IMG/VR virus record: IMGVR_UViG_3300042549_009011
Coordinates: 64,001 to 128,000 of that record
Strand: one strand, 5' to 3'
DNA from: a virus
DNA: 64,000 nucleotides
The notes under the pieces were generated by a model that had not been told where the DNA came from, did not search any database, and worked only from the letters and a program-made list of their open reading frames with translations. The translations under genes were made by a program, and so were the position numbers. Of this stretch, positions 17,339 through 47,970 are shown piece after piece. The stretch's first letter is position 1. Each line of letters begins with the position of its first letter.

Positions 17339-17692
17339 ATGCCAGCAAAAATAAAAAAAGCGACTTTCTTTAAAGAGAAAAGAGATTTTATATCGAGAAT
17401 GCTTAATGGATCTAAACCATTAAACTATTCTTTGGATATGGTTGCTGCGAAAAAAGTCTTCGATCAATTCGATAATGATATCGAATTTTTATCCAAGGTA
17501 AAACCACCATTCAAAATGAATGGTAGTATTAAATATTTTATAACCGCTGAAGGCATGAAATATTTAAAAAAGAAATATAAAGAATTTAATTTTAAAGTTC
17601 CAGAACATGAAATTCCACTTGATTTAGGTGAGAAAGCTGGAGAAGATATAGAGGTGAAAAAACAAATAACAATTAGAGATTTTCTATCATGA
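17339..17692 (+). CDS. Hypothetical protein
   Basis: ORF overlapping recA start (ATGA); ATG at 17339 preferred. Confidence 0.6.
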   Translation: MPAKIKKATFFKEKRDFISRMLNGSKPLNYSLDMVAAKKVFDQFDNDIEFLSKVKPPFKMNGSIKYFITAEGMKYLKKKYKEFNFKVPEHEIPLDLGEKAGEDIEVKKQITIRDFLS

Positions 17693-18852
17693 GTGCTAAA
17701 CAAAAAGTAAAACCAACAAATAACGAAGAAGAGGATACAAAGAAAAAATTGGATTCAAAAGCCTTTGCTACCCAATTCCTAAAATCAAATAAAGATTACC
17801 ATTACAACTTAGAGAAGGAAGTGGAAGAATATTTAATTTCAACAGGCTCTTTAATTCTAGACAGTAAAATCGGTGGAGGTCTTGGCTCTGGAGTTCACAG
17901 ATTCGTAGGCGTTACTGAAGGAGGAAAAACAAGTGCATCTCTTGAAGTAATGAAAAATATGATCAACAAATTTAAAGATGCAAAAGGTCTTTACATTAAA
18001 GCAGAAGGTCGTCTTTCTTCGAATGTTCAAGAAAGATCTGGATTAAAATTCATTAAAAATGCAGAAGATTGGGAAGTTGGAACATGTTTAATTCTTGAAT
18101 CAAATGTGTATGATGCTGTATTCGATTTCATTCGCGGAATCCTTAAAAATAATCCAAACAATGAAAAATATTGTATCATCATTGACTCTATGGACGGTCT
18201 TATTTCAAAAGGAGATTTGGACAAAACAACATCCGAAGCTGGTAAGGTTGCCGCAGGTGCGCTCTTAACTTCTGACTTCTTGAAAAGGGTTTCCTTGGGA
18301 ATGAGTAAATTCGGTCACTTGTGCATTATGACAGCACAACAAAGATCAAAAGTTAGTATTGATCCATATGCTAAAAAAGATACGAACAATACTACTGGCT
18401 CAAGTGGTGGCAATGCAGCGATGCATTATCCAGATTGGATTTTTGAATTCCAAAGGGTGTTTAAAGATGATAAAATTATGGATGATCCAAAAGCACCAAT
18501 TAGCCAAGATAATAAACTCTATGGTCATATGGCTAAAGTTTTGATTTGCAAATCAACAAATGAAACAACTGGAGAACTTGTAAAATATCCAATTAAGTAT
18601 GGAAGAAAAGATGGAACTTCTATTTGGGTAGAACGTGAGGTTGTAGATTTATTGCTGATGTGGGGTCTTTTCGAAAAGAAAGGTAGCTGGTTCAATACAG
18701 ATACAGATCTACTAGATCATATAAAAAGTAAAAATCTAGAAATGCCAGAAAAAATTCAAGGTATGAAAAATATTTACGCTCTTCTTGAAGGAGATAAAGA
18801 ACTTTATTTATGCCTTAAAGATTATGTTATTACGAACTTACTATCTGAATGA
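17689..18852 (+). CDS. recA: RecA/UvsX-like recombinase
   Basis: ISTGSLILD..IGGG, Walker A GVTEGGKTS, Walker B IIIDS, SGGNA, KKGSWF. Confidence 0.88.
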   Translation: MSAKQKVKPTNNEEEDTKKKLDSKAFATQFLKSNKDYHYNLEKEVEEYLISTGSLILDSKIGGGLGSGVHRFVGVTEGGKTSASLEVMKNMINKFKDAKGLYIKAEGRLSSNVQERSGLKFIKNAEDWEVGTCLILESNVYDAVFDFIRGILKNNPNNEKYCIIIDSMDGLISKGDLDKTTSEAGKVAAGALLTSDFLKRVSLGMSKFGHLCIMTAQQRSKVSIDPYAKKDTNNTTGSSGGNAAMHYPDWIFEFQRVFKDDKIMDDPKAPISQDNKLYGHMAKVLICKSTNETTGELVKYPIKYGRKDGTSIWVEREVVDLLLMWGLFEKKGSWFNTDTDLLDHIKSKNLEMPEKIQGMKNIYALLEGDKELYLCLKDYVITNLLSE

Positions 18853-19256
18853 TATTTTTCTCCACATCAGGAAAAGCTATAAAATTAAAAAAATCTTTTA
18901 ACTATTTAATTGATTGGGATGGAAAATGCAGAAGCAAATTTCAAGAAAAAGTAAAAGCTATGCTTTACGAACATTGGTTTGCCGATATCGTTTTCGAAGA
19001 ACTTCCAGTTATTGGCACAAGATTAACAATAGATTTTTATAACGCGAATAGAAAAATAGCATTAGAAGTTGATGGCAATCAACATTATAAATTCAATAAA
19101 CATTTTCACGGCAATAATAGATCAAAATTTTTAAGTCAATTACAGCGAGACGAGAAGAAGGAATATTTCTGCGAAATAAACAATATTAGACTTGTAAGAA
19201 TTTTAGAATCTGATACACTCAATGAACAGTTACTGAAAGAACTAGAACTTATCTAA
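18849..19256 (+). CDS. DUF559/Vsr-like PD-(D/E)XK endonuclease
   Basis: IDFY...ALEVDGNQH...RDEKK...IRLVRI. Confidence 0.8.
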   Translation: MIFFSTSGKAIKLKKSFNYLIDWDGKCRSKFQEKVKAMLYEHWFADIVFEELPVIGTRLTIDFYNANRKIALEVDGNQHYKFNKHFHGNNRSKFLSQLQRDEKKEYFCEINNIRLVRILESDTLNEQLLKELELI

Positions 19257-19480
19257 TGAAAGAAGAATCAATCATATCAATACCAAACTCTATTTTATGC
19301 AAACTTTTTGATCATACAGGATCAGAATCTGGCAGCAATAGAGGTTTCTTTTTATTTTACATCAATTCAGATGGTACTCCAGTAGTAACGTCAAAGACGG
19401 AAAATGCATGTGTATCTCTTGCAATTAGAAAAGTTATGGAAATGTTCCTAGAAGAAAGCAATCTATTAGAAAACCAATGA
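19256..19480 (+). CDS. Hypothetical protein
   Basis: Translationally coupled ORF within replication operon. Confidence 0.6.
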   Translation: MKEESIISIPNSILCKLFDHTGSESGSNRGFFLFYINSDGTPVVTSKTENACVSLAIRKVMEMFLEESNLLENQ

Positions 19481-21021
19481 TTTACTCTTACGAATTAGAA
19501 AAAAAAGTCCTTAGTGGCTTACTACAGCATCAACACAAGTGGGCAGAAGTATCTACCCTTATTAAAGAAAATGATTTTTATAGTGAAGATTCAAAAGTCA
19601 ATATATCCATTTTTAAATTAATTAGAAATGCTCTAGACAATAAAGAAAGTATTGATGAAACAATTTTGGTGCAGAGACTTTTGCAATTAAAAGTTTCATT
19701 TCCAGATAGTATAGATATTACAGAATATGTTTACTCTCTTGCATTTTTTAAAATCTCAGAGGATGTGTTCTTCACTTCTTTAAAAGAACTTAAAAAGTTC
19801 ACAGCAAGAAGAGAGATATACAAATCTTGTAAAGAAGTAGCTTCTTTCGTTAAGAACGCAGATCCGAATTTAAAATACTCTGAAATTGTAGACAAGGCAG
19901 ATAAGCTTTATAACGATGGTATTCAAGGATTTGAATCTCTTGATCGTGGTGCAGTTAATTTGTTTGATTTGGCAGAACCAATGATTGAAGAAAGAGGTAA
20001 CAACCCAGTCACTGAGTTTGGTTTGATGGGTCCTCATAAAAGAATTAATGAGATTTATGGCTCTCTTTTTCGTGGCGGGAATATAGCAATTATTATTGCT
20101 AGGGCTAAAGTTGGTAAGACTTCATTTTGTTTAGACTACGCCACTAAGGTTTCGATGGCTAATAATAACACCCCTATTCTACATTTTGATAATGGAGAAA
20201 TGAGTGAAGAAGAACTTATTATGAGACAAATGTCAGCAATGACTGGACTCCCAATGTATCTTTTTGAAACTGGCAAGTGGAGAACTTCTACTTATAAAGG
20301 AATGTCTTCTAAACAAATTGTTGATTTAACAAGAGCTACATTTAAAAAACTCAAAGGAACACAATTCTTCTATGAAAACGTTGCTGGCATGAATGTTGAG
20401 GAAATGGTTTCTCTCTTGAAAAGACATTATTATTCAAAAGTTGGTCGCGGCAATAAAATGATTTTTAGCTTTGACTATATTAAGAGCGACTTTTCTAATG
20501 CTGGCAAAGGAGAAGGATGGATGTTGGTTGCTAAGATGATGGATAGATTTAAACAGTGTATTCATAGAGAGCTTTGTTTTGATGGAGAAAGACCTGTAGC
20601 TATGCTTAGTTCGGTTCAAGCCAACAGAGCAGGTATCACAACAAGAAGAGCAGTAGAAGATATTGTTGAAGATGAAAGTGTTATTTCTCTTTCTGACTCG
20701 ATTGTCCAATTCTGTTCTCACGCTTTCCTTCTCAGGAAGAAAGTTGCTGAAGAAATTCAAGCAGAAAACGGCAAATTTGGAACACACAAACTAATCAATC
20801 TTGCAGCAAGACATTTAGGTGAAGATGCGATGTCTCACCTTGAACCAGTCACAATGCCAGATGGTTCTAAGAAAGACAATTTCATTAACCTAGATTTCAA
20901 CAACTTTTCGATTATTGAAAAGGGAGATTTAAAAGACATGATTAGAGCGCAATCTGGAGAAGATATAAATTTGGCATCAGACGAATCAAATTCAACCATA
21001 CCAATGGTACTTAGACAATGA
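19477..21021 (+). CDS. dnaB: Replicative DNA helicase
   Basis: N-terminal EKKVL...DFY domain, ARAKVGKT, GEMS, FDYI, VQANR. Confidence 0.92.
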   Translation: MIYSYELEKKVLSGLLQHQHKWAEVSTLIKENDFYSEDSKVNISIFKLIRNALDNKESIDETILVQRLLQLKVSFPDSIDITEYVYSLAFFKISEDVFFTSLKELKKFTARREIYKSCKEVASFVKNADPNLKYSEIVDKADKLYNDGIQGFESLDRGAVNLFDLAEPMIEERGNNPVTEFGLMGPHKRINEIYGSLFRGGNIAIIIARAKVGKTSFCLDYATKVSMANNNTPILHFDNGEMSEEELIMRQMSAMTGLPMYLFETGKWRTSTYKGMSSKQIVDLTRATFKKLKGTQFFYENVAGMNVEEMVSLLKRHYYSKVGRGNKMIFSFDYIKSDFSNAGKGEGWMLVAKMMDRFKQCIHRELCFDGERPVAMLSSVQANRAGITTRRAVEDIVEDESVISLSDSIVQFCSHAFLLRKKVAEEIQAENGKFGTHKLINLAARHLGEDAMSHLEPVTMPDGSKKDNFINLDFNNFSIIEKGDLKDMIRAQSGEDINLASDESNSTIPMVLRQ

Positions 21022-22073
21022 CAGATTACAAAACTATACTTGAGAACCTTGGATATAAGTTGATAGATAGAGGCTCTTTTTGGCAAACAACAGCAGTTTA
21101 TCGCGGAGGAGATAACCCAACCGCAGTTCAAGTGTATAAAAATACAGGGACTTGGAAAGATTATGTAGAAGATACAGAGTTTTTACCTTTCGAGGTTCTG
21201 CTAAAGAAAACATTGAATACCAGAGATGATCTCAAAATAAGAGAATTGCTTAAAGGTATAAAATCCAACATAGAACAAGAAACTAAACAAAAAAAACTTT
21301 TGAGCGAAGAAAAAACATATAATCCAACTTGTCTTAAAAAATTATTGCCTCATTATGACTTTTACTCTAAGCCTCCTCGATCAATAAGTCAGGAAACACT
21401 AAAAGACTACCAATGTGGACTCGCTAATAGCGGTAAACTTTATCAAAGAATAGTGTTTCCTATATTCAACAAAGATGGAAAAATTCATGGATTTTCTGGA
21501 AGAAAAATTTTAGATAAAAATGATTCACCGAAATGGCTTCATTTAGGTAAAAAAACAAACTGGTTCTATCCTTATTATTCTAATCCTAAAACAGAAAATG
21601 CTATAAAAGAAAAACGCTCCGTTTATCTCGTAGAATCAATTGGTGATTCTCTAGCTTTATATGATGCTGGCATCGAGAATAATTTAGTTTGTTTTGGAAC
21701 AGCAATATCTCCAAAATTTATTTCATATCTAAGTTCTTTAAATGTAGATAAAATTTATGTCTCATTAAACAATGACTTTCAAAGTGAAAGAAATCGTGGA
21801 TTCGAAGGCTCACTCAAAGTTATATTTAAACTATCTGAAATAATTGATTTTAAAAAGATTTATTTTGCACCTCCACATAAAAATGATTTTGGAGCGATGA
21901 ATAAAATAGATATAGATTCTTTTAATTCTCAGATAGAAAAGACAGATCATAAACTTTCTATTTCTAATATAATAGAATTTGGAAAACAAATTAATACAGA
22001 GACAAAACAGCCACCAGCATTTTCTAAAAATTTAAAAAATTTGTGCAAACTTTACAATTTCAATTATGGATGA
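21018..22073 (+). CDS. dnaG: DNA primase
   Basis: RIVFPI...GFSGR...KW, TOPRIM LVESIGD, LNND. Confidence 0.88.
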   Translation: MTDYKTILENLGYKLIDRGSFWQTTAVYRGGDNPTAVQVYKNTGTWKDYVEDTEFLPFEVLLKKTLNTRDDLKIRELLKGIKSNIEQETKQKKLLSEEKTYNPTCLKKLLPHYDFYSKPPRSISQETLKDYQCGLANSGKLYQRIVFPIFNKDGKIHGFSGRKILDKNDSPKWLHLGKKTNWFYPYYSNPKTENAIKEKRSVYLVESIGDSLALYDAGIENNLVCFGTAISPKFISYLSSLNVDKIYVSLNNDFQSERNRGFEGSLKVIFKLSEIIDFKKIYFAPPHKNDFGAMNKIDIDSFNSQIEKTDHKLSISNIIEFGKQINTETKQPPAFSKNLKNLCKLYNFNYG

Positions 22074-23127
22074 AATAAAAAATATTCCATTATCTGCGTC
22101 AAGAATAAAAACTCTACAGACATGTAGCTGGTTATACTATTATAATTATGTTCTTAAACTTCCAGATAAATCAAACGAAGGATCTTTAAGAGGAAGTTGT
22201 GTTCACAATATATTTGAATGCTTGGGCAACCCAAGACATAAAAAACATTATAATATAATTGTCAAGAAACAAGATTCATTTGCTTCGTCTGTAGTAGAAA
22301 GATATGTTCGTAAATTTGCAAAAAAATATAAGATAGATGATTTTGAAAATATTGATTCTATGAATGCAATGATTTTGTCTGGATTAAATTATGATTTCTT
22401 CAGCAAAAAGCATGGTAAGCCAACCGAATCAATTAGTGAAAAAGATTTTGATATTTCTATAAGCGATGAAAACAAAAACTATAGAATACTTGGATTCATA
22501 GATAAATTATTTTTGTTTAAGAAAAAAAGCACGGCATTGATTAGAGATTTTAAATCTTCGAAATCAGTTTTTTCTGGCTATGAAATAACAGATAATATTC
22601 AGCATCTAATGTATTGTTTGGCGGTTAAACACCTCTATCCAGAATATGCCAAAAGAGATATGGAATTTCTTTTCTTAAAATTCGATCCAGAGAATGGTGG
22701 ACTTTTAGTAATGGAAGATGTTGAAGAAGACGAGCTTGAAGGCTTTGAATTTTTCTTGAGTGAAATACAAAAAGTTATCAATAAATTTGATAGCAAAACA
22801 GCAACATCTTCAATGGCTTACGATAAGGGTTATCCAAGCAAGGACGAAGGCTTCTGCGGCAGAGCAGTTTGCGGCAGAGCAGAATTTGCTGGTCAACTAA
22901 AAAAAGATGGAACTCCAATGTGGCATTGCAAAGCCAAATTTGCACAAAACTTTTGGCTTCTTAAAAATGAAAAAGGAGAAACGATTAAAAGCGCATTCTC
23001 AGATGATAAAAAATCTCTTGAAGAAATTATGGATAAATATCCAAATTCAAAAATAGAAAAATTCGCTTACGAAGGTTGTCCAAAATTTAATAAAAAAATG
23101 GTTGACAAATACGATGCTTTCTTGTAA
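22066..23127 (+). CDS. RecB/AddB/Cas4-like PD-(D/E)XK exonuclease
   Basis: LSASRIKTLQTC, GSCVH, GFIDK...DFKS, QHLMY, C-terminal Cys cluster. Confidence 0.85.
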   Translation: MDEIKNIPLSASRIKTLQTCSWLYYYNYVLKLPDKSNEGSLRGSCVHNIFECLGNPRHKKHYNIIVKKQDSFASSVVERYVRKFAKKYKIDDFENIDSMNAMILSGLNYDFFSKKHGKPTESISEKDFDISISDENKNYRILGFIDKLFLFKKKSTALIRDFKSSKSVFSGYEITDNIQHLMYCLAVKHLYPEYAKRDMEFLFLKFDPENGGLLVMEDVEEDELEGFEFFLSEIQKVINKFDSKTATSSMAYDKGYPSKDEGFCGRAVCGRAEFAGQLKKDGTPMWHCKAKFAQNFWLLKNEKGETIKSAFSDDKKSLEEIMDKYPNSKIEKFAYEGCPKFNKKMVDKYDAFL

Positions 23128-23130
23128 GCT
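23102..23130 (+). promoter_or_regulatory. Sigma70-type promoter for polymerase operon (probably leaderless)
   Basis: TTGACA-17 nt-TAAGCT, 6 nt before GTG 23137. Confidence 0.7.
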
Positions 23131-23136
23131 CAAATT

Positions 23137-23829
23137 GTGATACCATTATTCAAAACTCACGCCTCAATTGGTAAGAGTATTTTAAAAAATTCAGATATAC
23201 TCTCTTTTCAAAAAGATAGAGAATTAAAGCAAGTCGTTATGGTAGAAGATACCTTTTACGGCTTTAGAGAAATTAATCAAAAATTGATAGAGGCTAATAG
23301 TCAATTAATTTTTGGTATAAGATTATCTGTAGTCGAAAATAAAACTGACGAGCTATCTAGCAAGCTTATTTATTTTGCCAAAAATAACGAAGGAGCAAAG
23401 CAGATTAAAAATCTTTATACAAAAGCAAATTGCTCAGACTCTGGAAACTTAGTTTTAAATGAATTAAAACAAGAAGAGTATTCTGAAATAAAAGTCGGCG
23501 TTCCATTTTATGATTCATTTATATATCAGAATATTTTTAATTTTGGACTTTGCGATGTAAACATAAAAAGATTTGACCACTTCTTTTTTGAAGAAAAAAA
23601 TGATCATCCATTTGACGCAATAATTTCGCAACAGCTTAAAAGCTTTTGCAAAAAAACTGTTTTGTCAAAATCTATCTATTACAAGAACAGACAAGATGTT
23701 GAAGCTTTTCAGTTTTATAAAGCAGTATGTAATAGATCAGGCGGCAGGTCGCCAAATTTTGGTAATCCAAATATTGAACATTTTTGTTCTCCAGAATTTT
23801 GTTGGGAATCTTACTTAGAAAATAAATAA
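23137..23829 (+). CDS. Stand-alone PHP domain of DNA polymerase III alpha (degenerate)
   Basis: PLFKTHASIGKS, VMVED...G, IFGIRL, FAKNNEG..QI correspond to the DnaE N-terminal PHP domain. Confidence 0.75.
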   Translation: MIPLFKTHASIGKSILKNSDILSFQKDRELKQVVMVEDTFYGFREINQKLIEANSQLIFGIRLSVVENKTDELSSKLIYFAKNNEGAKQIKNLYTKANCSDSGNLVLNELKQEEYSEIKVGVPFYDSFIYQNIFNFGLCDVNIKRFDHFFFEEKNDHPFDAIISQQLKSFCKKTVLSKSIYYKNRQDVEAFQFYKAVCNRSGGRSPNFGNPNIEHFCSPEFCWESYLENK

Positions 23830-43889: not shown

Positions 43890-43926
43890 GTATATTATTA
43901 CACTTTAAATATTTTTTTGGAAAAAG

Positions 43927-44000
43927 TGCCTAGAGGGAGACTTGAACTCCCAAAACCCAGTTTCTAAGACTGGTATGTATGCCAATTCCATCATCTAGGC
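43927..44000 (-). tRNA. tRNA-Leu(TAG), short variable loop
   Basis: Cloverleaf; anticodon arm CCAGT-CTTAGAA-ACTGG; CCA not fully encoded. Confidence 0.85.
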
Positions 44001-44006
44001 TAAAAA

Positions 44007-44082
44007 TGGAGGGCGGTGAGGGAATTTAACCCCCTTAAAGATGGGTTGCAATCATCTGCCTAAACAGTCGAGCCAACCGCCC
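44007..44082 (-). tRNA. tRNA-Cys(GCA)
   Basis: Loop TTGCAAC, U73, CCA encoded. Confidence 0.85.
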
Positions 44083-44090
44083 TTTGAAAA

Positions 44091-44165
44091 TGGTAGTCCT
44101 AGAGAATTTTGAAATCTCAACCTATCAGTTATCAACCGATTGCTCTTCCTTTGAGCTATAGGACT
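44091..44165 (-). tRNA. tRNA-Ile(GAT)
   Basis: ATCGG-TTGATAA-CTGAT, CCA encoded. Confidence 0.85.
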
Positions 44166-44172
44166 ATTAAAG

Positions 44173-44248
44173 TGGAGCCTCCTGTCCGATTCGAACGAAC
44201 GACATGCTCATTACAAATGAGCTGCTCTACCAACTGAGCTAAGGAGGC
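44173..44248 (-). tRNA. tRNA-Thr(TGT)
   Basis: GCTCA-TTTGTAA-TGAGC, canonical D and T loops, CCA. Confidence 0.95.
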
Positions 44249-44255
44249 ATAAAAT

Positions 44256-44342
44256 TGGCGAGTGGCAGAGGGATTGAACCCCACACCTTGCGGTGCATTT
44301 TCTTTAGCAGAGAAACCTAATCACCAGATTAGATTACCACTC
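44256..44342 (-). tRNA. tRNA-Ser(GCT)
   Basis: TTTCT-CTGCTAA-AGAAA, long variable arm, G73, CCA. Confidence 0.9.
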
Positions 44343-44351
44343 ATGAAAAAT

Positions 44352-44426
44352 TGGTGGGTTATAAAGGAATCAAACCTCTGTTTTGTCGTTCGTAGCGACA
44401 TGTCCTATTCATTAGACGAATAACCC
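44352..44426 (-). tRNA. tRNA-Arg(ACG)
   Basis: TGTCG-CTACGAA-CGACA, CCA. Confidence 0.9.
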
Positions 44427-44433
44427 TATAAAA

Positions 44434-44508
44434 TGGTCGCTTGTCACGGAATCGAACCGTATTATCTGAGGCTTCTCAGCGCAATGTTTCCAGACCTGCC
44501 CACAAGCG
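44434..44508 (-). ncRNA. tRNA-like RNA without a canonical anticodon loop
   Basis: Perfect acceptor stem CGCTTGT/ACAAGCG+ACCA and GGTTCGATTCC T arm, but anticodon arm is CTGAG-AAGC-CTCAG. Confidence 0.75.
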
Positions 44509-44517
44509 TAAAATTAA

Positions 44518-44572
44518 TTTCCAAGGGTTAGAATGTTTAACTCATGCCACCACAGCATGATGCCCTTGGAAA
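44518..44572 (-). ncRNA. Unassigned small structured RNA
   Basis: TTCCAAGGG/CCCTTGGAA closing stem with inner TCATGC-TGTGGTG-GCATGA hairpin, flanked by the same AT spacers as the tRNAs. Confidence 0.5.
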
Positions 44573-44575
44573 AAT

Positions 44576-44699
44576 TGGAGCGGCGGCAGAGCGTCACTTC
44601 TGTCTTGCAGGGGACTCCGAAATACCCCATGATCTCCTTCTTACTAGGACAGTCCAAGATTTACTGTCTTTTAATTCGGGTTTTTGTTGACTATACCGC
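44576..44699 (-). ncRNA. Unassigned ~124-nt RNA with tRNA-like CCA end
   Basis: 5' GCGGT pairs with 3' GCCGC-TCCA; internal hairpins GACAGT/ACTGTC and GGGG/CCCC. Confidence 0.55.
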
Positions 44700-44709
44700 A
44701 TTATAAAAG

Positions 44710-44782
44710 TCCTCCATGTTGGTTTCGATCCAACTACCCGACCCTTATAAAGAATCTGCTCTCCCGATTGAGCTAATGGAGG
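44710..44782 (-). tRNA. tRNA-Ile(TAT)
   Basis: GATTC-TTTATAA-GGGTC, A73; CCA not fully encoded. Confidence 0.85.
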
Positions 44783-44787
44783 TAAAA

Positions 44788-44861
44788 TGGAGGGACGCAA
44801 CGGTTATGATCCGTTCCCGCGACATTCACAGAGTCGGATGCTACCACTACACTATCGTCCC
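44788..44861 (-). tRNA. tRNA-His(GTG), atypical acceptor end
   Basis: CGACT-CTGTGAA-TGTCG; U73 and no encoded G-1. Confidence 0.75.
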
Positions 44862-44867
44862 TTAAAT

Positions 44868-44941
44868 TGGTGCATTGTGCGAGAATTGAACTCGCGCCTG
44901 ATATTTGGAAGAAACCCGTGCTACCGTAACACTTACAATGC
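44868..44941 (-). tRNA. tRNA-Gly(TCC)
   Basis: Loop CTTCCAA, CCA encoded, A73. Confidence 0.8.
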
Positions 44942-44948
44942 ATAAAAA

Positions 44949-45023
44949 TGGCTCACCGTTTAGGATTCGAACCTAACTGGATCTCCTTAACAGGGAGGTG
45001 TCGCGCCTAGCGACCTACGGTGA
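44949..45023 (-). tRNA. tRNA-Asn(GTT)
   Basis: CTCC-CTGTTAA-GGAG, U1-A72, G73, CCA. Confidence 0.9.
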
Positions 45024-45032
45024 TTTGGAAAT

Positions 45033-45107
45033 TGGTAGGGGCGTAGGGTAATGCTCCCTATTCGTCGAGTTAAAAGCCCGATGCATCACTATTAATGCTT
45101 CACCCCC
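45033..45107 (-). tRNA. tRNA-Lys(TTT)
   Basis: TCGGG-CTTTTAA-CTCGA, CCA; divergent T loop. Confidence 0.85.
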
Positions 45108-45116
45108 ATTTAAAAT

Positions 45117-45194
45117 TGGCGCACAGGGTCAAAATCGAATTGACCTCACAAAGATTTGGAGTCCTCGTCGCCTAGCCTTGGAACATGCCCGTGC
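45117..45194 (-). tRNA. tRNA-Trp(CCA)
   Basis: GAGGA-CTCCAAA-TCTTT, G73, CCA; irregular D arm. Confidence 0.8.
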
Positions 45195-45203
45195 GTTAAA
45201 AAT

Positions 45204-45296
45204 TGGCGGGTGCGGTAGGATTTGAACCCACGGAACGCTCATCACGCCCAACAGTTTTCAAGACTGCCGCCATAAACCAGACTCGACCACACACCC
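45204..45296 (-). tRNA. tRNA-Ser(TGA)
   Basis: GCAGT-CTTGAAA-ACTGT, long variable arm, G73, CCA. Confidence 0.93.
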
Positions 45297-45304
45297 GTAA
45301 AAAA

Positions 45305-45394
45305 TGGTGCGCCCCACTAGAATCGAACTAGATGCCCATTAGGGAGCGGATTTACAGTCCACCGTAAGCCCAGCTTACCTTATTTATGAGACGC
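45305..45394 (-). tRNA. tRNA-Tyr(GTA), remodelled D arm
   Basis: GTGGA-CTGTAAA-TCCGC, variable arm, CCA. Confidence 0.8.
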
Positions 45395-45399
45395 GAAAT

Positions 45400-45473
45400 T
45401 GGTGGCTCCTCCGTGAGTTGCACACGAACCTACAGATTCAAAGTCTGTCGCGCTTCGATTACGCTAAGGAGCT
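45400..45473 (-). tRNA. tRNA-Gln(TTG)
   Basis: ACAGA-CTTTGAA-TCTGT, unpaired 1:72, CCA. Confidence 0.85.
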
Positions 45474-45482
45474 ATTATAAAT

Positions 45483-45558
45483 TGGTAGGACAGGTGGGAT
45501 TTGCACCCACACCTTGAGAGCGTATGAGACTCTTGCACACTTATATGCTTGCTGTCCA
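45483..45558 (-). tRNA. tRNA with CAT anticodon (Met or Ile2)
   Basis: AGAGT-CTCATAC-GCTCT, CCA; identity ambiguous. Confidence 0.75.
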
Positions 45559-45568
45559 GTTGAAAAAA

Positions 45569-45640
45569 TTGCGGAGGCAGGAGTCGAACCTGCTTACGAT
45601 GCTTATGAGACACCTTTCTGAACCCTTCGAATTCCCCGCG
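45569..45640 (-). tRNA. Initiator-like tRNA-fMet(CAT)
   Basis: CGCGGGG...CTCCGCA-A acceptor with C1xA72 mismatch; GGTGT-CTCATAA-GCATC. Confidence 0.8.
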
Positions 45641-45651
45641 ATTATAAAATT

Positions 45652-45734
45652 GATCCCCAACCAAAAGTAGTCTTTGTCGCCCTACGTATGAGCTTACAGA
45701 TCGGGGCATGAAGCCCCTTGTCCTTTTGGTGGGA
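45652..45734 (-). ncRNA. Unassigned structured RNA
   Basis: TCCCACCAAAAG/CTTTTGGTTGGGGA closing helix, GGGGC-TTCAT-GCCCC hairpin, occupies one slot in the array. Confidence 0.55.
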
Positions 45735-45738
45735 AAAT

Positions 45739-45836
45739 TGGTCTAGGTAGAGGGATTCGAACCCCCGAAGGACGGACACTTACCGCCCTCAACTGATTCC
45801 AAGTCAGCCACATTACCAAGCTATGTCAATACCTAG
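45739..45836 (-). tRNA. tRNA-Pro(TGG) with long variable arm
   Basis: GCTGA-CTTGGAA-TCAGT, C1-G72, A73, CCA; extra arm AGGGCGG-TAAGTGT-CCGTCCT. Confidence 0.85.
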
Positions 45837-45842
45837 TGAAAT

Positions 45843-45917
45843 TGGTCATGCATACGGGGAACGATCCCGTAGTCTCTTGAGTGAAAGTCAAGCGTGTTAC
45901 CATTACACTAATGCATG
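45843..45917 (-). tRNA. tRNA-Glu(TTC)
   Basis: CTTGA-CTTTCAC-TCAAG, CCA. Confidence 0.88.
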
Positions 45918-46107
45918 TTAAAAAATTTACCAGTTGCCTCGATTTCCAAGGCTAACACGGGACTGGAAGCTCCGCACAAAAAATACTTTAAAATCATTCT
46001 AGTCAGACTTTTAACTGCTATCTCGTTATCAACGAACGTTAAGGATTTTTCAGCCTTCCCTTTGGCTTTCATGGCTAGATCAAGTTTTCGTCTAGCGATT
46101 TAAAGTG

Positions 46108-46135
46108 AACTTATCTTAATTTGTAATTTTGTCAA
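46108..46135 (-). promoter_or_regulatory. Possible sigma70 promoter for tRNA array
   Basis: TTGACA-16 nt-TAAGTT immediately after the terminator U tract. Confidence 0.5.
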
Positions 46136-46136
46136 T

Positions 46137-46190
46137 AAAAAAACCCAACTTTTTTAAGGTTGGGCTAAAAAAACTAAAAATTTAACCCAA
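46137..46190 (-). terminator. Attenuator: intrinsic terminator with competing antiterminator
   Basis: Terminator AGCCCAAC-loop-GTTGGGTT+T tract; upstream TTGGGTTAAA (46190-46181) can instead pair with TTTAGCCCAA (46169-46160). Confidence 0.75.
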
Positions 46191-46195
46191 AAACT

Positions 46196-46261
46196 TTACA
46201 CGACCCACCCGCAGCGATTAATCACTGGCTGGCTTTTGAGATATGTAAACGAATAATGCAT
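46196..46261 (-). CDS. Putative attenuator leader peptide MHYSFTYLKSQPVINRCGWVV (not in ORF track)
   Basis: ATG 5 nt after upstream stop; 21 codons, 17 amino acids; stop 5 nt before antiterminator strand. Confidence 0.7.
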   Translation of the reverse strand: MHYSFTYLKSQPVINRCGWVV

Positions 46262-46266
46262 TAAAA

Positions 46267-46437
46267 TTATTTGGTTGGTTTTTCTTCCACAACAACTGGC
46301 TTTCTGGCTTCGTCGTATGTGTTGACTGCTTTAGCAAAAGCATTAAACTTTTGAAGGTTTTCTGCAAATTTAGCTTGATCGGCACAAGAGTTCAAAAGAA
46401 CTAAAGAGGCGATTAATGTAAAAATTTTTGCTTTCAT
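46267..46437 (-). CDS. Small lipoprotein
   Basis: MKAKIFTLIASLVLLNSC lipobox-like signal; ATG 46437 is 8 nt after GTGTAA. Confidence 0.7.
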   Translation of the reverse strand: MKAKIFTLIASLVLLNSCADQAKFAENLQKFNAFAKAVNTYDEARKPVVVEEKPTK

Positions 46438-46464
46438 ATTTTTTATTACACTCAATATTAATAT

Positions 46465-47042: not shown

Positions 47043-47732
47043 TTATCTACTATCTATAAAATATTCTTTTGCACCGTCAATTATCATCGCAGTAATATAT
47101 CCATAAGGTAAGAAGCTGCCAGTGTCAATGCAAATCCTGAATCCATCATTAGTGACTCCATCTCTTTGGACGGTGTGACCACAAACAACGGTTTTACCTG
47201 ATTTGTGAGGATATATATCATTGTATCGTCCCCAAATGCATTGCCATTCTTCTTGATCTTCCACATCTTGTTCGTGAGCCAAATGACCGTGAACAAAAAT
47301 ATGATTGTCTGTTTCATAGGTGAGTTTTAAATCATTAAAAAAGTCTCCATGAATTTCAAACATTTGTTGAATGGTTTCACCAAAGTTATCTTCTTTTAGA
47401 CCATATTTGTTGTAAGAGCGTAAACAAGAGACTCCTCCGTTGTTCATCCAAGAATGGAACATCTGAGATAGACCCAATCTTCCCTCTGTGAATTTCAGAC
47501 CGTCCATTGCAAACATTTCGTGATTGCCTTTCAAAGTCACCAAATTACATTTATCTTTAAGAGATAAAATAAAATCAATTACGCCTTTAGAATCTTCACC
47601 ACGATCAATATAATCGCCAAGAAAAATAATCGTGTCGTTTTTAGTGAATGATAGTTTTTCAAAAAGGTTTTTGAGTTTATGGATTTCTCCATGAACGTCA
47701 CCAATCGCTATAATTTTACCGCTATTTTTCAT
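47043..47732 (-). CDS. PPP-family metallophosphoesterase (Ser/Thr phosphatase-like)
   Basis: GDVHG, GDYIDRG, GNHE, FVHG, GHT, IDTG. Confidence 0.92.
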   Translation of the reverse strand: MKNSGKIIAIGDVHGEIHKLKNLFEKLSFTKNDTIIFLGDYIDRGEDSKGVIDFILSLKDKCNLVTLKGNHEMFAMDGLKFTEGRLGLSQMFHSWMNNGGVSCLRSYNKYGLKEDNFGETIQQMFEIHGDFFNDLKLTYETDNHIFVHGHLAHEQDVEDQEEWQCIWGRYNDIYPHKSGKTVVCGHTVQRDGVTNDGFRICIDTGSFLPYGYITAMIIDGAKEYFIDSR

Positions 47733-47970
47733 ATAGTTCTTTTATATCAGCTTCCAACTCCGTTGATCTATATCCAAGATTCAACAACATAATCTCTAAT
47801 CCTTCTAATCCAGCATTCCTGCAATAGAGTTGGCTTCTTCCGCCGCGAACTGTTACTGAACAAGTGCTAGGCGTATGTTCAATAATCATGTGCGGATCTG
47901 CTATACCAACCTGTTGCCCACCTTTTGAGCGAGTTATTGGAGTTATTTTAATTTGTGATGGGTGAATCAT
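47722..47970 (-). CDS. Stand-alone release-factor GGQ domain protein
   Basis: SKGGQQVG...IEHTPS..SV...RSQ...R..GL aligns with class I RF domain 3. Confidence 0.75.
   Translation of the reverse strand: MIHPSQIKITPITRSKGGQQVGIADPHMIIEHTPSTCSVTVRGGRSQLYCRNAGLEGLEIMLLNLGYRSTELEADIKELYEK

Follow-up and report, generated by a model that had tools for sequence, protein, structure and literature searches.

A short leader frame of high residue diversity and a putative attenuator ahead of a phage tRNA array

Ahead of its tRNA array the phage studied here carries an element that is very probably a real and conserved cis-regulatory attenuator coupled to translation. It consists of a short leader open reading frame (ORF) in which nearly every codon calls for a different amino acid, and of an antiterminator and a terminator helix that exclude each other. 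We consider it likely that the element acts as a broad decoding sensor, i.e., an attenuator that measures the decoding of most codon types; judged from its sequence, this phage and its relatives would probably make more tRNA whenever their ribosomes decode slowly. The window, as we call the whole stretch of 64,000 nucleotides that was analysed, covers positions 64,001 to 128,000 of the virus record IMGVR_UViG_3300042549_009011, and its features are collected in Table 1.

The virus record measures 147.7 kb at 34.7% G+C, and its genes include those for a DnaE-type polymerase, a ribonucleotide reductase, and a Clp ATPase. Database comparison found no close cultured relative; the sole match in GTDB is a 139-kb contig filed as Saccharibacteria that probably is a mis-binned phage. 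In the genome (C1) the early region occurs in duplicate (around 17500-23800 and at 141700-147700) with identical promoters and genes, representing either a terminal repeat or an assembly overlap. Further along the window (47722-47970, minus strand) an 82-aa protein with a GGQ motif is encoded, with a weak match to the RF-1 domain that stays below the cut-off (E 0.0015); relatives hold genes for PTH2 and an RNA ligase in the same block, so that this region is rich in translation-rescue genes.

Table 1. Features of the leader, switch, promoters and tRNA array (window coordinates, except for the far-group leaders)
Feature	Position	Strand	Remarks
GTGTAA motif	46446..46451	-	putative late-type promoter element; would feed the leader transcript
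Lipoprotein-like ORF	46267..46437	-	56 aa; inserted between GTGTAA motif and leader; no Pfam match
Leader ORF	46196..46261	-	21 codons for 17 different amino acids; the 20 internal codons fall into 18 anticodon classes
Candidate RNA polymerase pause hairpin	46212..46227	-	inside leader ORF; MFE structure
Antiterminator 5' strand	46181..46190	-	starts 5 nt after stop; GGG core 8-10 nt after stop
Shared strand	46159..46169	-	antiterminator 3' strand and terminator 5' arm; helix overlap
Terminator 3' arm and T tract	46137..46149	-	in homologues, two stem positions with double changes from A-U to G-C
TTGACA-N16-TAAGTT	46108..46135	-	sigma70-type promoter; downstream of terminator, bypasses switch
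Structured-looking stretch	45919-45977	-	directly before tRNA-Glu; shared by L225 and L226 with a changed inner stem; no Rfam match
tRNA array	43926..45917	-	19 tRNAs serving 16 amino acids, and tRNA-like RNAs; regulated unit
tRNA-Pro	45739-45836	-	unusually long, 98 nt (ARAGORN)
Structured non-tRNA RNA within array	45640-45735	-	z -3.4; long terminal helix, internal hairpins; no Rfam match
tRNA-shaped RNA with CCA end	44437-44508	-	4-nt loop on the anticodon arm; scores 22.9 against the Rfam tRNA model, under the cut-off
Far-group leaders with TATAAATA motif	L043 4662-4793; L086 5392-5520; L048 4694-4786		20, 20 and 19 distinct residues; switch sequences differ

The leader in the window and its occurrence in relatives

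The leader of the window runs from an ATG at 46261 to a TAA at 46198-46196 and uses 19 distinct codons; only Ala, Asp, and Glu are missing from its residues. At least 17 distinct residues are reached by 0.3% of phage proteome windows of the same length, by 0.5% of nucleotide shuffles, and by 0.7% of uniform random peptides (p about 0.003-0.007 over the three nulls), and the leader ranks first in residue diversity among 678 small ORFs of the whole genome. The top rank of a single leader could by itself be a selection artefact; chance is excluded because the diversity is conserved in relatives. Shine-Dalgarno sites precede only 10 of 148 genes genome-wide, at a background of 6%, so the missing site before the leader is no objection to its translation. 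The lipoprotein-like ORF ends 5 nt before the leader start, and re-initiation from its stop onto the leader is possible. Small ORFs occupy the same place in six close relatives (L217-L219, L221, L223, and L227), where they end 5-10 nt before the leader start; in this sub-clade they fall into two sequence types of 47-56 aa, and L001, L003, and L005 have no such insertion. The hairpin inside the leader ORF is predicted at the same place in most homologues and is weak (mean z -1.3 to -1.7); matches to the pause consensus are very frequent in the G-rich leader stretch and hence little informative.

Nearly all relative loci were gathered via the neighbouring HNH gene, and leaders were called by position, not by content, as the ORF that ends about 20-45 nt before the terminator ahead of the first tRNA. 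Besides the window, 24 relatives carry such a leader, all from the clade with the GTGTA(A/T) motif, and their terminator lies 27-37 nt from the stop. The order of the parts does not vary: the motif comes first, then a short A/T-rich spacer, the leader, the G-rich strand, the terminator and the TTGACA promoter, and last an array of which the first tRNA usually is tRNA-Glu. Leaders start with ATG or GTG, end in any of the three stop types, and count 20-22 codons (27 in one case), with the frame kept throughout. In the HNH tree all 14 members of a well-supported clade that includes the window have the leader; across the tree its presence is patchy, and several other relatives lack it and retain the promoters alone. 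Two tips labelled there as leaderless, L241 and L056, do carry a leader, and no gain/loss count is taken from this tree. About ten further leaders belong to a far group. A scan with the leader pattern returned three known members plus four matches without the leader-terminator layout, and nothing further. The terminator pattern gave 104 matches in viral contigs, mostly unrelated terminators with known clade members among them; at L119 (1248-1317, minus strand) and in L212 the terminator is followed by a tRNA array, with ORFs of 20/50 and 19/45 distinct residues.

The antiterminator and terminator helices

The antiterminator of the window (46190-46181 with 46169-46160) has an energy of -10.6 kcal/mol (z -3.4), the terminator stem (46166-46159 with 46149-46142, T tract to 46137) one of -9.5 kcal/mol. 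Both use the same 5' arm and are thereby mutually exclusive. The array begins with tRNA-Glu at 45917, 220 nt beyond the terminator. Sequence and folding thus agree exactly with the first-pass annotation on the ORF, on both helices and the overlap between them, and on the distance to tRNA-Glu. Among the eight terminators of this genome, the antiterminator is the strongest competing helix.

The covariation that had been proposed as a test for both stems is found in the relatives. Every homologue can form a helix of -7 to -16.5 kcal/mol between the 5' arm of its terminator and a strand that begins 1-8 nt past the stop, and the first GG stands 2-10 nt after the stop in 24 of 24 leaders. The GGG/CCC core of the antiterminator is paired in 21 of 21, with variable pairs next to it (T-A, C-G, T-G, A-T, G-C). 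With the alignment anchored on this core, 89 of 105 inner antiterminator cells are paired compared to 75 when partners are shuffled, and 80 are Watson-Crick compared to 59; in the terminator, compensatory double changes occur (Table 1). Both stems have changed in L241, the terminator stem wholly, with pairing kept in both. RNAalifold on a MAFFT alignment recovered the terminator and no other structure, and Rfam gave no match over the element at the gathering threshold or with a convincing E. A T-box riboswitch was considered and rejected: Rfam had none at E up to 10, and the region from ORF to terminator spans just some 30 nt.

The element thus combines a short conserved leader ORF, a terminator before the genes, and a covarying exclusive antiterminator, as ribosome-mediated attenuators do. 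Masking by a ribosome at the stop, the effect anticipated by the first-pass annotation, is seen in our folding model. In co-transcriptional folding, before the 3' arm of the terminator is made, the antiterminator has a probability of about 0.9 in the absence of a ribosome and of 0.92 with a ribosome on inner codons, falling to 0.10-0.17 once the stop occupies the A site and the footprint edge is set at P+15/+16. For the window itself the values are 0.9 when open and 0.1-0.6 with a ribosome at the stop; its GGG lies at the limit of the ribosome footprint, making it a borderline case in which the switch does not close with an edge at P+13. Stalls at the final one or two sense codons are partly missed in the folding model. 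At full-length equilibrium the terminator wins in several homologues regardless of the ribosome, and the folding of the window is less clean; the model would therefore depend on the order of folding. No conserved anti-antiterminator is seen in the element, so an untranslated leader should read through.

Residue diversity and the readings it allows

The excess diversity foreseen for the relatives is present. Over 24 leaders (window included, L241 left out) the mean is 16.6 distinct residues, against 12.5 in proteome windows and 12.9 in nucleotide shuffles, although the homologues are kin, so that nominal p-values are too small and independence is overstated. The most diverse are L005, with 19 residues in 20 codons, and L232, with 19 in 22. 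Far-group leaders have dissimilar sequences and in most cases 18-20 distinct residues, and they partly constitute independent support for selection on diversity. Chimeras made by permuting residues within the columns of 18 close leaders drop from a mean of 17.17 to 14.73 distinct residues (sd 0.24), which means that the set of residues is conserved and not their positions; neutral drift from the window peptide with the same number of changes would leave about 13.

The first-pass annotation had further proposed that the leader is fitted to the phage's own tRNA set, and this we reject. Its coverage of 15 of the 16 amino acids served by the array is correct (the array has no tRNAs for Ala, Asp, Phe, or Val), yet the leader also includes Phe and Val, for which the array of the window offers no remedying tRNA. 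The shared absence of Ala and Asp has P of about 0.1 here and does not recur among relatives whose arrays are complete. The alleged codon-box match for Leu fails since standard wobble does not let tRNA-Leu(UAG) read CTC. A match between leaders and arrays appears with truncated arrays (p 0.019), but the eight complete-looking arrays share 8 gaps with their leaders compared to 8.3 after permutation (p 0.67, or 0.88 without the window). In L220 and L225, leaders of 17-18 residues precede arrays of about nine tRNAs. The leader is tuned to the genetic code and not to the phage's own list of tRNAs.

The best surviving alternative, which we regard as rather unlikely, is an attenuator of generic translation stress (antibiotics, ribosome shortage, host shut-off), in which the ribosome would need no more than a timely arrival at the stop and diversity would serve to catch context-specific stalling and not tRNA shortage, as in toiL, which senses five drug classes via stalls at different positions (PMC12121999). 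Since read-through is the default without a ribosome, failed initiation would open the switch as well. Moreover, some homologues keep the switch with chance-level diversity: L004 (12 distinct residues in 21 codons), L025 (13/21), L096 (14/20), L059 (15/27), and also L062 and L077. What this alternative leaves unexplained is that a near-complete residue set is kept while positions change, and that, of 88 pairs of codons for a repeated residue, 67 call for different anticodon classes where three codon nulls predict 45-52. This latter bias points to the tRNA species as the unit that is sampled. The two readings overlap, as a decoding sensor would respond to drugs too.

Very improbable is a functional small peptide followed by an ordinary terminator that insulates the array from upstream genes. 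A terminator ahead of a new promoter is indeed a common arrangement, the leaders show a pN/pS of about 0.5 in two sub-groups, and a few positions are conserved (Tyr3, and an Asn near the end); however, mean identity is 42% among the 18 close leaders and falls to 14%, with 20 of 22 columns variable. Nor would a peptide account for an extra helix that covaries at a fixed distance from the stop and competes more strongly than any such helix at the other terminators of the genome, or for the same layout around unrelated leader and stem sequences in far relatives. Equally little credence goes to a structured non-coding RNA or a fixed-ratio leaky terminator with diversity as a by-product of balanced hairpin base composition: the leader does exceed the genome in G+C and folds into a hairpin, and the two helices are similar in energy, but the same DNA, read in its other frames or on the reverse strand, yields only 12.9-13.8 distinct residues, often with stops, start and stop codons are retained while identity changes, and Rfam recognizes nothing.

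Promoters, proposed action and relation to known systems

In the relatives the GTGTA(A/T) motif is found 12-29 nt upstream of the leader start, or before the inserted small gene. It precedes 21 of 148 ORF starts compared to 1.2 expected, with a peak at -14 to -18; several of its sites are in a morphogenesis-like block, and far relatives have the T4-type late motif TATAAATA in its place. From these features we infer that it is a late promoter. Behind the terminator most homologues have a -35/-10 pair with 16-nt spacing, which leaderless relatives keep, and dozens of TTGACA-type sites are concentrated towards the ends of the genome, in regions that are likely early; by this distribution, the pair of the window most likely serves early transcription and bypasses the switch. 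Given this conserved promoter, the switch probably controls not the whole output of the array but just those transcripts that start at upstream, likely late, promoters.

We assume that transcription and translation are coupled in the host. A transcript from upstream, probably from the GTGTAA late-type promoter, would then carry the leader, and a ribosome moving through the 21 codons in step with RNA polymerase would reach the stop and cover the GGG strand. With this strand masked, the terminator would form and transcription would end ahead of the tRNA genes. If the ribosome were delayed before the last one or two codons, or never loaded, the antiterminator would form first and polymerase would read into the array. 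With some 17 amino acids and some 19 tRNA classes each represented once in the leader, the switch would open when almost any charged tRNA ran short. Anticodon nucleases are one candidate trigger, next to starvation or slow decoding of any other kind. The separate promoter behind the terminator would provide unregulated early expression of the tRNAs, and the attenuator most likely would set how much of the upstream, late transcription enters the array. Translation of the leader, its coupling to the polymerase, the timing of the promoters, and the physiological trigger all belong to this inferred part of the model. As to the other RNAs of the array, the first hairpin of the structured RNA at 45640-45735 recurs near the array head in L006, L007, and L008, and the stretch directly before tRNA-Glu is possibly a processing element or a ribozyme-like RNA.

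Classical attenuators (trpL, hisL, leuL, thrL, pheM) regulate genes for biosynthesis or for synthetases through leaders in which one to three cognate residues are repeated in runs. The element shares with them the short leader ORF, the exclusive antiterminator and terminator, and the masking of the antiterminator strand by a ribosome at the stop; in contrast, it has no cognate run, avoids repeats, and matches no Rfam leader family. Closer to it is the whiB7/wblC attenuator of actinobacteria, in which translation of the uORF to its end likewise leads to an intrinsic terminator and a stall to an antiterminator (10.1101/2023.06.02.543512). Starvation sets off the whiB7 uORF only when the missing residue is one encoded in it, and in M. 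smegmatis the uORF has all residues but Cys (10.1101/2023.06.02.543512); whiB7 also rises when the toxin VapC5 cleaves a tRNA (PMC10287673). Broad amino-acid coverage and read-through in the stalled state are common to both. The whiB7 uORFs, however, are longer, vary in coverage, are enriched in Ala, and have a chromosomal transcription factor as output, whereas the element has about 21 codons with nearly one of each residue under measurable selection (and no Ala in the window) and is situated in a phage before tRNA genes. By this analogy it would work like the whiB7 attenuator without being a member, and sequence homology is not expected. The toiL uORF of E. coli topAI-yjhQ is similarly a single short uORF that stalls at many positions, but it acts by occlusion of the ribosome-binding site and Rho termination, senses antibiotics, and controls a toxin-antitoxin pair (PMC12121999). 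The trn operon of Anabaena resembles the target of the element, being a long tRNA array induced by translational stress, and differs in its control by promoter repeats and the repressor TrcR (PMC8421152, PMC10272220); the paper on this control nowhere mentions attenuation or a leader. A literature search, mostly of freely accessible papers, found no leader attenuator ahead of tRNA genes, nor any in a phage. As far as sequence can tell, the element would share its mechanism with the uORF attenuators.

The earlier proposal of a diverse leader coupled to an antiterminator/terminator switch before the array is supported by the conserved ORF, its diversity, the stems, and the footprint folding. More tentative is the idea of a counter-defence loop, in which a leader working at the level of isoacceptors would audit the tRNA pool and turn on late replacement tRNAs upon loss of tRNAs to host anticodon nucleases or decay, a design recurring in distant phage lineages; that destruction of tRNA by host defence is what the element evolved to detect is likewise a conjecture that may or may not hold. 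Why phages carry tRNAs has been an open question for more than 50 years; according to one present-day view, these tRNAs take the place of host tRNAs that are destroyed in the course of infection (PMC10264068). Tying tRNA transcription to decoding failure is predicted by this replacement view and not by simple codon compensation, and the switch makes the question testable with a 125-nt reporter. The leader would represent a regulatory sequence selected for the completeness of its amino-acid and tRNA set and not for a particular sequence, and the element would offer a ready-made means of sensing defence systems that cleave tRNAs.
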